Source: Microgenomates group bacterium (lineage in GTDB: Bacteria; Patescibacteriota; Microgenomatia; UBA1406; GWC2-37-13). From it: a stretch of 64,000 nt of DNA. The stretch is from contig JBAQNR010000007.1 of the NCBI GenBank assembly GCA_049304035.1, positions 4,548-68,547 of the forward strand. The letters are read 5' to 3'. The notes beneath the pieces were generated by a model, which did not search any database, was not told the origin of the DNA, and saw only the letters and a list, made by a program, of their open reading frames with translations. The position numbers and the translations under genes are program-made. Below are positions 4,531 through 24,777 of the stretch, piece after piece (within the stretch, counting starts at the first letter, position 1; each line of letters opens with the position of its first letter).

Positions 4531-4588
4531 ATAATCTTACCACGAATATCCACAATCGTCAAATTGTGGATACATAAGAAGATTATAT
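4531..4588 (-). promoter_or_regulatory. PeSL-like class I: stem-loop with -35 in loop plus extended -10 promoter
   Basis: minus strand TTGACG (4562-4557), 17 nt, TGgTAAGAT (-10 at 4539-4534); 9-bp arms 4548-4556/4563-4571. Confidence 0.7.
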
Positions 4589-5586
4589 CAGTCTATCCAA
4601 AATGTGTGGCAATGGGGACAATGCGTTCCACATGGAAACTCATTCAGATAATACGTATTTCTGTGTCTCCGCATATCCATATCCATTGGAGTACACCCAC
4701 CTTTTTCAAATGTTTCCTTATATCTTTTTTCTCTTGCTAATTCTTCCGCATAAGATTCATTTACCTTTGCCTTTTTTGCTGACGTTTTCTTTTTTCTAAA
4801 AGAAATTCCCGTTCCATCACACCAGTTTGTGGACATTCCACAAACTTCATACGTGTATGAATACTTCACTTCCTTATCGATAAAAAAGTTCTTAATCTCA
4901 AACGGAATTGCAAACTTATGCCCAACCAACTGGCAATTGTCACCCGCCCCATTCCAAGTGTCAATAATTGCAATATTTGGATTTGTAAATTCAACAACAT
5001 TCTTATCAGACAAATGCATCATCTCATTAATGTCACCGGTAAAATAAATCACCAATCTTCCGTTGTCACCTTGACGAATCATCATGTCAATGTCATTATC
5101 CCATTTTGTTTCTTTCAGCGGGATTTTTAATGCTTTCTTGATTTGTTTGCACATTTTATCAACTTCGTCTTGGTCTGATAAGCATCCGTCATAAAATTCT
5201 TCGCCAGTATCATAAAACATTACAATATCCCTTGTGTTTCTGATTAAATCTTTTATTGGGTCGGACTCGTCCCTATCCATAATAACATCCCGAAGATTTT
5301 CCCAGTGTTCTTCCATTAACTCTTCCGCTTCTTCTTCGGTTATGTCGAATTCTTTTTCAATTTCGTCCTTCAATTCTTTTGCAATAAAATCTAAACTATC
5401 GCATTGACATTCCCAAAACCAATCATCGCAATTTTGGTCAATATGACACCAGTCTTGTGTTCTTATTGCTTCCGCGACACTTTCCAGACTATCATCTAAA
5501 TTGCTTCGATAATCAACATAAATCAAATCATAAGACTTATTCAACAATTTTTCAATATCTTCGTAAGTAATTTCCTTAGTTTCCAT
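4588..5586 (-). CDS. hypothetical protein (332 aa), C-terminal CxxC/HCxHC cluster
   Basis: track ORF trimmed to ATG 5586 with AAAGGAGAT SD; no family recognised. Confidence 0.7.
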   Translation of the reverse strand: METKEITYEDIEKLLNKSYDLIYVDYRSNLDDSLESVAEAIRTQDWCHIDQNCDDWFWECQCDSLDFIAKELKDEIEKEFDITEEEAEELMEEHWENLRDVIMDRDESDPIKDLIRNTRDIVMFYDTGEEFYDGCLSDQDEVDKMCKQIKKALKIPLKETKWDNDIDMMIRQGDNGRLVIYFTGDINEMMHLSDKNVVEFTNPNIAIIDTWNGAGDNCQLVGHKFAIPFEIKNFFIDKEVKYSYTYEVCGMSTNWCDGTGISFRKKKTSAKKAKVNESYAEELAREKRYKETFEKGGCTPMDMDMRRHRNTYYLNEFPCGTHCPHCHTFWID

Positions 5587-23199: not shown

Positions 23200-23230
23200 A
23201 TCTTCTCCTAATTTGAAAATTGACAAAAGC

Positions 23231-23272
23231 CTGCCGATAATATTTCCCCGTAAATTCATCAATTATCGGCAG
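23231..23272 (-). promoter_or_regulatory. 11-bp perfect inverted repeat just downstream of promoter (operator or 5' UTR hairpin)
   Basis: ctgccgataat (23231-23241) / attatcggcag (23262-23272), 20-nt loop. Confidence 0.5.
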
Positions 23273-23283
23273 ATATTTCGTTA

Positions 23284-23312
23284 ATTTTACAACTTATTTG
23301 TTATTTTGTCAA
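23284..23312 (-). promoter_or_regulatory. sigma70/sigmaA-type promoter (minus strand)
   Basis: TTGACA (23312-23307), 17 nt, TAAAAT (23289-23284). Confidence 0.6.
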
Positions 23313-23938: not shown

Positions 23939-24047
23939 AATCTTCCATTTCTGCGTTGTCCAGCATAGCAATTGTCACGAATTGCCGCCTTTAATTCGAT
24001 TTGAAATTCCATATAGTTATCAAACTCGTATTCAATCATTTTTGACA
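23913..24047 (-). CDS. small hypothetical protein (44 aa)
   Basis: ATG 24047 with AAGGAGAAAAA SD; below track cutoff. Confidence 0.4.
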
Positions 24048-24145
24048 TTTTTTCTCCTTATGGATATAATGATGCTAAAACCCAAATTACAAAACACAAA
24101 ACAACTCCGACCTTTTGCCACATTGGAATTCTTTTAGATGCCATA

Positions 24146-24340
24146 TTATTGCCCAAGATTTCTTTTCAAAGATTCAATTTGAGACTCTACATACATGAGC
24201 CTTGATGGTTTAGGAACAAAATATATAAACCCATTCCTTTTATTTGCCTCAAGACTTTCTTCATGCATCTTTTTCAGAGTCTCAAACTCTTTTTCAAACT
24301 TTGAGAGAATTTCTTCTCTCTTTTGCTTTTTTGTTTTCAT
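24146..24340 (-). CDS. hypothetical coiled-coil protein (64 aa)
   Basis: track ORF; TGGAGAAAAAC SD. Confidence 0.6.
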   Translation of the reverse strand: MKTKKQKREEILSKFEKEFETLKKMHEESLEANKRNGFIYFVPKPSRLMYVESQIESLKRNLGQ

Positions 24341-24374: not shown

Positions 24375-24454
24375 TGGCAATGGGGAGATTCGAACTCCGC
24401 AATTCTTCCTTTCGGCGATTTCCCAGAATCATTTGGAAATTGTGCGCCATTGCC
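24375..24454 (-). ncRNA. tRNA-like element (canonical acceptor stem and T-arm, non-canonical D/anticodon region)
   Basis: minus strand GGCAATG...CGGAGTTCGAATCTCCC-CATTGCC-A: perfect 7-bp (extendable to 9-bp) acceptor stem and GTTCGAATC T-loop; the middle folds as one long arm (ATTTCCAA/TGGGAAAT, loop AUGAUUC) plus CCGAAAGG hairpin; no cloverleaf found by hand. Confidence 0.45.
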
Positions 24455-24459
24455 ATTTA

Positions 24460-24777
24460 TTAATTTATTCTCATTTCAAACATTTGGATAAAATCAATCT
24501 CTAAATTTTGCACGTATTCAAATCCAATTTTCTCATAACTTTTCCGCGCAGGAATATTTTCCTTTGCAACATACAAGGTATATTTTCCAGGAAATTCCTG
24601 TAAAAATTCCATCAACATTTTTACACAATATCCATTTCCCCGATACTTTTTGAAAATCTTCACGCTCCAAATTTCATCTTTGATAATCGCAAATGTTCCC
24701 ACAAATTTTCCATCATCAGAAAAATATACAAATTTTTCCTCATCAGGATAATGCTGGATTGCTTTTGGAATAATCAT
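24460..24777 (-). CDS. GNAT-family N-acetyltransferase (minimal, 105 aa)
   Basis: KKYRGNGYCVKMLMEF (acetyl-CoA R-x-x-G-x-G motif) and NIPARKSYEKIGF. Confidence 0.65.
   Translation of the reverse strand: MIIPKAIQHYPDEEKFVYFSDDGKFVGTFAIIKDEIWSVKIFKKYRGNGYCVKMLMEFLQEFPGKYTLYVAKENIPARKSYEKIGFEYVQNLEIDFIQMFEMRIN

Follow-up and report, generated by a model that had tools for sequence, protein, structure and literature searches.

A conserved tRNA-like element with no conserved anticodon hairpin beside a small GNAT acetyltransferase gene of a large SPbeta-like phage

The stretch of DNA analysed here (64,000 nt, hereafter the window; positions 4,548 to 68,547 of contig JBAQNR010000007.1 in assembly GCA_049304035.1, filed under a Microgenomates group bacterium) carries on its minus strand an 80-nt tRNA-like element, which runs from 24454 to 24375 directly after the gene for a small acetyltransferase of the GNAT family and has the sequence GGCAAUGGCGCACAAUUUCCAAAUGAUUCUGGGAAAUCGCCGAAAGGAAGAAUUGCGGAGUUCGAAUCUCCCCAUUGCCA. 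Together with two further copies on other viral contigs, it appears to specify a conserved, folded RNA that keeps the top half of a tRNA, i.e. the acceptor stem and T arm, and has no conserved anticodon hairpin. On the comparison of these three copies the element is probably neither a working nor a broken tRNA but a tRNA look-alike. The fuller reading, in which this structured RNA imitates the tRNA top half without decoding, undergoes maturation by tRNA enzymes and then serves as a look-alike, stands at about an even chance in our judgement, and any specific role in trans would merit confidence well short of that.

A preliminary description of this DNA, made from the letters alone, had reported an 80-nt minus-strand element with a 7-bp acceptor stem extendable to 9 bp and with A as discriminator, and all of this is present in the sequence. 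In the RNA numbering used here, position p corresponds to window coordinate 24455-p. The acceptor strands GGCAATG/CATTGCC pair perfectly. G8-C72 lengthens the stem to 8 bp, and counting U(-1)-A73 as well makes it 9 bp; A73 is the discriminator in tRNA numbering. The T arm had been given as CGGAG-TTCGAAT-CTCCC; its loop (UUCGAAU in RNA) holds, but the 5-bp stem does not, because the outer pair is a C-C clash, leaving a 4-bp stem (GGAG/CTCC) and a spare C that pairs with G8. The 8-bp acceptor and the 4-bp T stem thus add up to a 12-bp stack, as usual in tRNA. U(-1) at 24455, G1, A73 and the C that follows the discriminator (C74, at 24374) are invariant in the three copies, and the flanks diverge immediately beyond them. 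A strict descriptor (loop TTC[GA]A[AT]T abutting a T stem of 4 Watson-Crick bp and an 8-bp acceptor, 60-95 nt in total) matched the window once, at the element itself, and had no match in 300 first-order Markov shuffles; a chance origin of the element is excluded. Its folding as a single sequence is unexceptional (z-score -1.2).

The fold was derived from an alignment of the window copy with those at two other loci, L010 and L011; window and L011 align without gaps, and L010 has one 1-nt deletion. The RNAalifold consensus (Table 1) consists of five helices, namely the acceptor, a 6-bp helix Y, hairpins A (4 bp) and B (2 bp) and the T stem, with standard pairs in 71 of 71 cells; helix Y closes a three-way junction that holds the two hairpins. 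Five pairs are altered on both sides among the three copies, and four of the five helices are represented: pair 7-73 in the acceptor (G-C to A-U in L011), 16-52 in helix Y (U-A to A-U in L010), 18-50 in helix Y (U-G, U-A and C-G in the three copies), 28-35 in hairpin A (U-A to G-U in L011) and 41-46 in hairpin B (C-G to U-A in L011). Another acceptor pair, 5-75, goes from A-U to G-U in L010. Every one of the 23 differences (11 between window and L011, 12 between window and L010) is compensatory, wobble-compatible or in an unpaired column. The real pairing score was matched by 6 of 500 column shuffles, and slid controls were 32-56% paired.

Hairpin B corresponds to the CC-GAAA-GG mini-hairpin of the preliminary description, which was confirmed in the window copy; its loop is GAAA there versus GUGA in L010, and GNRA fits both. 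The loop of hairpin A reads CUGGGA in the window, CUUGG in L010 and UUGGAA in L011, a D-loop-like YUGG(G)A whose GG is kept in all three. The T stem is invariant, as is the T loop save for U62, which is G in L010. Counted from the alignment, 4 of 32 columns vary in the acceptor/T-arm half and 16 of 48 in the body, which suggests that the tRNA-like half is under the strongest selection. G-U pairs occur on the gene-sense strand only (5-75 in L010, 18-50 in the window, 28-35 in L011), and this restriction points to the sense RNA as the folded molecule.

Table 1. Features of the tRNA-like element and its neighbours (all coordinates refer to the window unless a locus is named).
Feature	Coordinates	Strand	RNA positions	Remarks
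Whole tRNA-like element	24375..24454	-		Conserved in L010:4325-4403 and L011:3182-3261
Acceptor stem, 5' strand	24447..24454	-	1-8	GGCAAUGG; 8 bp with 72-79
Linker CGNA			9-12	4 nt; between acceptor 5' strand and helix Y
Helix Y, 5' strand	24437..24442	-	13-18	CAAUUU; pairs with 50-55
A-rich junction			19-24	Ahead of hairpin A; conserved, AAA kept
Hairpin A	24417..24430	-	25-38	Stem GAUU/AAUC (25-28 with 35-38), loop CUGGGA
Hairpin B	24408..24415	-	40-47	2-bp stem (40-41 with 46-47), GNRA tetraloop
Helix Y, 3' strand	24400..24405	-	50-55	GAAUUG; followed by a single C (position 56)
T arm	24384..24398	-	57-71	GGAG-UUCGAAU-CUCC; stem 57-60 with 68-71
Acceptor stem, 3' strand, and discriminator	24375..24383	-	72-79 and A80	CCAUUGCC, then A80
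GNAT acetyltransferase, minimal	24460..24777	-		105 aa; PF00583 match, E 1.7e-7; AlphaFold2 (AF2) model, predicted local distance difference test (pLDDT) 88.8
Downstream open reading frame (ORF)	24146..24340	-		64 aa; own Shine-Dalgarno sequence; not conserved at this position in L010/L011

For the centre of the element, the preliminary description had proposed one long arm (ATTTCC/GGGAAAT). This arm can form in the window copy, where it is the minimum-free-energy fold of the single sequence, but it is not the conserved fold: the pairing of 15-20 with 32-37 is 76.5% paired in the alignment, and the other two copies offer only a shifted 5-bp version. Two smaller additions to the consensus were tried and rejected, namely a D stem of 10-12 with 54-56, broken in L010 by A11-G55, and a pseudoknot of 11-31 and 12-30, which has 2 bp only and whose column 11 seems free. 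Some substitutions also travel together. In L011, G7A, C41U, G46A and C73U occur jointly, and an alternative 4-bp pairing of 7-10 with 38-41 is preserved as well; in L010, the T-loop change U62G coincides with G31U in the D-like loop. Seen in one lineage each, these joint changes might point to an alternative conformation or to a tertiary contact.

Three search rounds through 5.8 billion protein clusters returned nine close homologues of the GNAT, and among them the element accompanies only those on L010, a 61.5-kb viral contig syntenic with the window phage, and L011, a viral contig of 8.9 kb. The element copies score 99-105 bits with a covariance model. The GNAT is the upstream neighbour at all three element loci, as the preliminary description had noted for the window; the element starts 5 nt past its stop there, and 5-9 nt past it over the three loci. 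The ribosome-binding site of the next gene follows 20-40 nt downstream of the element, and the downstream genes themselves are different at each locus. Pairwise identity is 76-86% for the element, 64-74% for the GNAT coding DNA, 52-62% for GNAT third codon positions and 43-48% for the 120 nt downstream of the element. Five of the eight GNAT loci with DNA (L017, L018, L019, L026 and L027) lack the element and carry a terminator-like hairpin or the next gene in its place, and at a sixth element-free locus, known without its DNA, the next gene begins 5 nt past the stop. As judged from these identities, the element is an optional module under purifying selection.

Searches for further copies gave none in IMG/VR, whether by exact and degenerate patterns or by protein-seeded locus searches (GNAT and helicase seeds). 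Two matches in JGI metagenomes and three in GTDB genomes were all due to chance, a blastn search against GenBank phages hit only tRNAs through their T arms, and DNA and covariance-model searches of 150-189 genomes from the family of the bacterium that shares the phage's assembly (described below) yielded no copy either. At the three known loci, no promoter or terminator was seen that could convincingly be assigned to the element; the sequence TTGAAA-17-TAGTAT in L010 is well placed for a promoter, but the window and L011 have no counterpart and such a match is at chance level in AT-rich DNA.

The contig that carries the window (130,778 bp, i.e. 130.8 kb; 36% G+C) is one of 14 in a 1.30-Mb assembly. 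A 21-bp direct repeat common to both of its ends marks it as a closed (circular) phage genome and not a prophage. Its rightward half encodes terminase, portal and tail proteins, and the terminase shares 42% identity with those of Thomasclavelia phages TR-TP1 and TR-TP2 and 38% with the Bacillus SPbeta group; the phage is a large, SPbeta-like one. The element and the GNAT gene lie inside a leftward array of small early genes, and the phage has a single canonical tRNA, Met-CAU. The co-binned 1.3-Mb genome is bacterial, with sigma-70 factors present and the TATA-binding protein (TBP) absent. Neither an RNase P RNA (type A or B) nor RnpA nor RNase Z was found in it, and it encodes a HARP-type PIN_5 protein (C8:152919-153506, L024; 149 bits). 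HARP is present in 57 of 61 genomes of its family and RnpA in 1 of 61; by gene content this is apparently a family of small-genome bacteria reliant on protein-only RNase P.

The ends of the element follow the grammar of the tRNA genes in the same assembly. All 48 of these (47 in the co-binned genome and the phage tRNA-Met) have C74; the full CCA is encoded by 10 of the 48, and most of the others read N73-C-A. Such uniform partial 3' ends may result from the way in which an organism that lacks RNase Z matures its tRNA 3' ends, and a CCA-adding enzyme is encoded in the assembly. All types of RNase P gauge the distance from the acceptor end to the T loop and read the elbow. For HARP, a minimal protein RNase P, structural work has shown backbone-only contacts to the T arm/elbow, the acceptor stem and the cleavage site, so that the enzyme acts as a ruler from the acceptor 5' end to the T loop (PMC12217051). 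U-1, G+1, the 12-bp ruler, the T loop and C74 of the element are consistent with tRNA end-processing, and from the way in which RNase P reads ruler and elbow we infer that the element is excised and CCA-completed like a tRNA.

The mechanism that we propose begins with a transcript in which the element is probably joined to the GNAT and the early genes. A host enzyme of the RNase P type and the 3'-end machinery would recognise the acceptor-to-T-loop ruler and the elbow, and the element would be excised and CCA-completed to give a stable RNA of about 80-83 nt. In this RNA the D-like hairpin A would fold back along helix Y, and its GG would meet the T loop to form the elbow. Taken jointly, these steps (co-transcription, recognition, excision with CCA addition, and fold-back) strike us as somewhat favoured. 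Lacking an anticodon, the element would be unable to decode; its most likely role would be one in trans, in which the RNA resembles tRNA closely enough to occupy, or to be put to use by, a factor that reads the tRNA acceptor end or elbow. The suggestion that it does so as a decoy for a tRNA-targeting host enzyme, or as a carrier, is tentative, and we consider it possible but rather unlikely. A narrower version is quite unlikely: that the RNA, matured like a tRNA, is a body double of it, which either draws off a host defence enzyme that attacks the acceptor or elbow or carries an aminoacyl group for a non-ribosomal use, possibly for the GNAT. Excision of the element may also punctuate the early transcript.

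Several points weigh against this account. Only three copies are known and two of them come from one ENA sample, so covariation counts are small, and the consensus structure was derived from the same alignment that was then used to score it. The alternative central helix, 15-20 with 32-37, has a computed energy similar to that of the Y fold in each copy; both conformations may therefore exist, the substitution pattern favouring Y. The L010 T loop has a G at the equivalent of U55, which is unusual for a true T loop, the stem of hairpin B has 2 bp only, and the elbow contact is modelled. As the five loci without it show, the GNAT module can do without the element. Finally, the real host is uncertain, the circular phage contig being only co-binned with the 1.3-Mb genome: the relatives of the phage infect Bacillota, and a related terminase is absent from 188 other genomes of the co-binned family, so that the binning may be wrong.

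Among the other explanations, a working tRNA of unusual architecture, either D-armless or with a re-wired D stem enclosing the anticodon arm, would account for the position of helix Y (whose 5' strand follows the acceptor and whose 3' strand precedes the T arm), and the top half does agree with a canonical tRNA in its 8 + 4 bp, UUCGAAU loop, A73 and compensated acceptor changes. The window copy alone can also present a 7-nt loop, AUGAUUC, with U33, in which the preliminary description had placed GAU in the anticodon position. That loop is not conserved, however; the three copies have AUGAUUC, AGGAUUC and AAGGAUG, with U33 absent in two of them and the anticodon not preserved. Under either candidate fold, the copies share no 5-bp stem with a 7-nt anticodon loop (hairpin A has 4 bp and a loop of 5-6 nt), and no canonical D stem at positions 10-25 can be formed after positions 8-9. 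ARAGORN, run on the window and on the excised region, made no call in its bacterial, intron, metazoan/mammalian mitochondrial (-mt, -mtx, -mtmam) and tmRNA modes, and when forced at 60-70% thresholds it returned meaningless calls only. Rfam 15 gave nothing at gathering score and no tRNA (RF00005) even at E<=10 on 351 nt, where the best hit was a local match to the tmRNA T arm with 4.9 bits against a gathering score of 47; standard tools, organellar modes included, thus miss the element. The large late ORFs of the phage are open in the standard code, and nothing suggests the need for a special decoder. A decoding role is very improbable on this evidence, and with it go the aberrant tRNA of the preliminary description and the candidate allo-tRNA or re-wired D-arm decoder, for want of a conserved anticodon hairpin. 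A decaying gene, i.e. a former phage tRNA whose D and anticodon arms were lost by internal rearrangement and which is now neutral, would fit the habit of phages to gain and lose tRNA genes and the one canonical tRNA left in this phage. The next-best matches of the covariance model are tRNA-Ser genes; they run through acceptor and T arm alone, and tRNA-Ser ancestry was rejected on that ground. Conservation of the element exceeds that of synonymous sites in the neighbouring GNAT, and its differences all respect one fold, the five double changes included. A neutrally decaying sequence would neither retain a GNRA loop across the change from GAAA to GUGA nor compensate its stem changes; decay is improbable. 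At the level of DNA, tRNA 3' halves are common as phage attachment cores, and a remnant of such a site had been suggested; both acceptor strands are present, though, no tRNA of the assembly matches over more than 13 nt, which lie in the T arm, and the element is internal to the early gene array of a contig that closes on itself, not at a prophage end. As for a small ORF, an ATG precedes G1 in all three copies, but its frame stops after 7 codons in L010 and after 14 in L011. One antisense frame is open over the element in all three, yet its ATG is lost in L011 and the 1-nt deletion shifts it in L010; counted from the alignment, codon positions 1, 2 and 3 take 3, 9 and 8 of its variable columns, and the G-U pairs are workable on one strand only. 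An attachment-site remnant, some other DNA-level site or a small-ORF artefact is scarcely credible.

The constant neighbourhood with the GNAT, 5-9 nt past its stop in three of three copies despite different downstream genes, raises the question whether the element is the RNA partner of this enzyme, as antitoxin or decoy for a tRNA-acetylating toxin or as aminoacyl carrier for a GNAT-fold transferase. Enzymes of this fold do include toxins that acetylate aminoacyl-tRNA (TacT, AtaT) and aminoacyl-tRNA transferases (Fem, L/F-transferase, MprF). The linkage is biased, however, because the copies were found through GNAT loci, and the pairing is not obligate at the eight loci with DNA. The protein carries the acetyl-CoA motif region of PF00583; its fold neighbours, from the AF2 model, are SpeG spermidine acetyltransferases, HP0935 and PAT, and its sequence neighbours are enzymes of RimI, Naa or SpeG type; the closest resemblance is to SpeG or protein acetyltransferases and not to TacT, AtaT or Fem. 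No toxins of TacT/AtaT type occur among the sequence or fold neighbours, and PADLOC gave no match for the GNAT. A toxin-antitoxin pair of TacAT/AtaRT type was rejected accordingly, the link to GNAT toxins floated in the preliminary description finds no support here, and a partnership with the enzyme is, by a shade, even more improbable than decay. More weight goes to a purely cis-acting processing signal, a tRNA punctuation between the GNAT and the next cistron whose excised RNA has no function. The element lies within the operon, where neither a promoter nor a terminator specific to it was seen, it is optional, with a hairpin or the next gene at GNAT loci that lack it, and its best-conserved features are those read by processing enzymes (PMC12217051). 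Against this, the body is under pairing constraint too (helix Y, GNRA cap, D-like loop); a minihelix alone would be a substrate, so there is more structure than a cut site needs; and since the downstream genes differ at the three loci, there is no specific cistron pair to separate. We regard the cis-acting signal as unlikely, if less so than the other rivals. The mimic remains the reading that we prefer, and of the options in the preliminary description it was the decoy or mimic that fared well: the top half is most conserved, acceptor changes are compensated, and C follows the discriminator in all three copies. That interpretation was thus partly supported, the mimic standing and the aberrant decoder, attachment remnant and GNAT-toxin link falling.

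Other signals lie nearby. Opposite the leftward gene array, the window has a rightward promoter of perfect consensus, TTGACA-17-TATAAT (24042-24070, plus strand), and about 230 nt past it a terminator-like hairpin with a T run (24303-24330, plus strand). Together these would yield an antisense RNA over the 64-aa ORF that ends just before the element. On L010 we also noted a second, different tRNA-like sequence of 57 nt (4739-4795, plus strand), with a 7-bp acceptor TCCCGTT/AGCGGGA (one G-U), a loop TAAAAAT on a 6-bp stem, and the T arm TGGG-TTCGAAT-CCCA. It is flanked by a promoter, TTGACA-17-TAAAAT (4707-4735), and an intrinsic terminator (about 4813-4845), and ARAGORN makes no call on it; as transcription is likely to start within the 5' strand of its acceptor, the sequence could be a fragment of a tRNA or due to chance. 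This sequence sits at a syntenic spot shared by the three contigs (window 23215-23312, minus strand; L010:4707-4845; L011:3435-3500), where a TTGACA-17-TAAAAT promoter is combined with differing short structured inserts: a hairpin with an 11-bp stem and a T run in the window, the 57-nt tRNA-like sequence and a CCCCG...CGGGG terminator in L010, and the same terminator alone in L011. By its layout the spot looks like a promoter-hairpin cassette with exchangeable contents.

With three sequences to go by, the element is for now a well-documented lead rather than a discovery. If matured and stable, the RNA would be a minimal natural test object for RNase P-type and CCA-adding enzymes, EF-Tu and tRNA-targeting defence nucleases, and also a candidate phage decoy RNA; were it truly a body double of tRNA, it would amount to a new class of counter-measure or cofactor made of phage RNA. 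Known tRNA look-alikes are parts of larger RNAs (tmRNA, plant-virus 3' ends, YrlA), and we found no description of a free-standing 80-nt, anticodon-less phage mimic of the tRNA top half in full-text literature searches or in Rfam 15.

With canonical and D-armless tRNAs, the element shares the acceptor stem, the UUCGAAU T arm, the discriminator, C74 and the 12-bp stack, and it differs from them in having neither a normally placed D arm nor a conserved 7-nt anticodon loop. The allo-tRNAs and tRNAs of tRNA-Sec type that Mukai et al. reportedly described in Nucleic Acids Res in 2017 have 8/4 and 9/4 stacks, and the element likewise splits its stack into an 8-bp acceptor and a 4-bp T stem; unlike the element, allo-tRNAs have D, anticodon and long variable arms, and they decode. 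YrlA ends in its Ro-binding stem and its acceptor-like stem is closed, whereas the ends of the element lie at the acceptor. What the two have in common is that they are bacterial or phage RNAs without a decoding function, which imitate the T arm, D arm and acceptor-like stem of tRNA; in YrlA and other bacterial Y RNAs the tRNA-mimicking module is bound by Ro60 (PMC4201824). A Ro60 gene (TROVE, PF05731) is absent from the whole assembly, in which controls responded, and there was no Rfam match. In architecture, the nearest known counterpart is the tRNA-like domain of tmRNA, which works with SmpB: there too an acceptor 5' strand is followed by a short linker that replaces the D arm, a long helix, the T arm, and the acceptor 3' strand with discriminator A, and neither RNA has an anticodon arm. 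The differences are that tmRNA has about 260-400 nt, while the element has 80 nt and neither an mRNA-like tag frame nor pseudoknots; that pair 3-70 of the element is C-G and not the G-U needed by alanyl-tRNA synthetase; and that the D-like loop of the element is carried by a nested hairpin and not by the linker.

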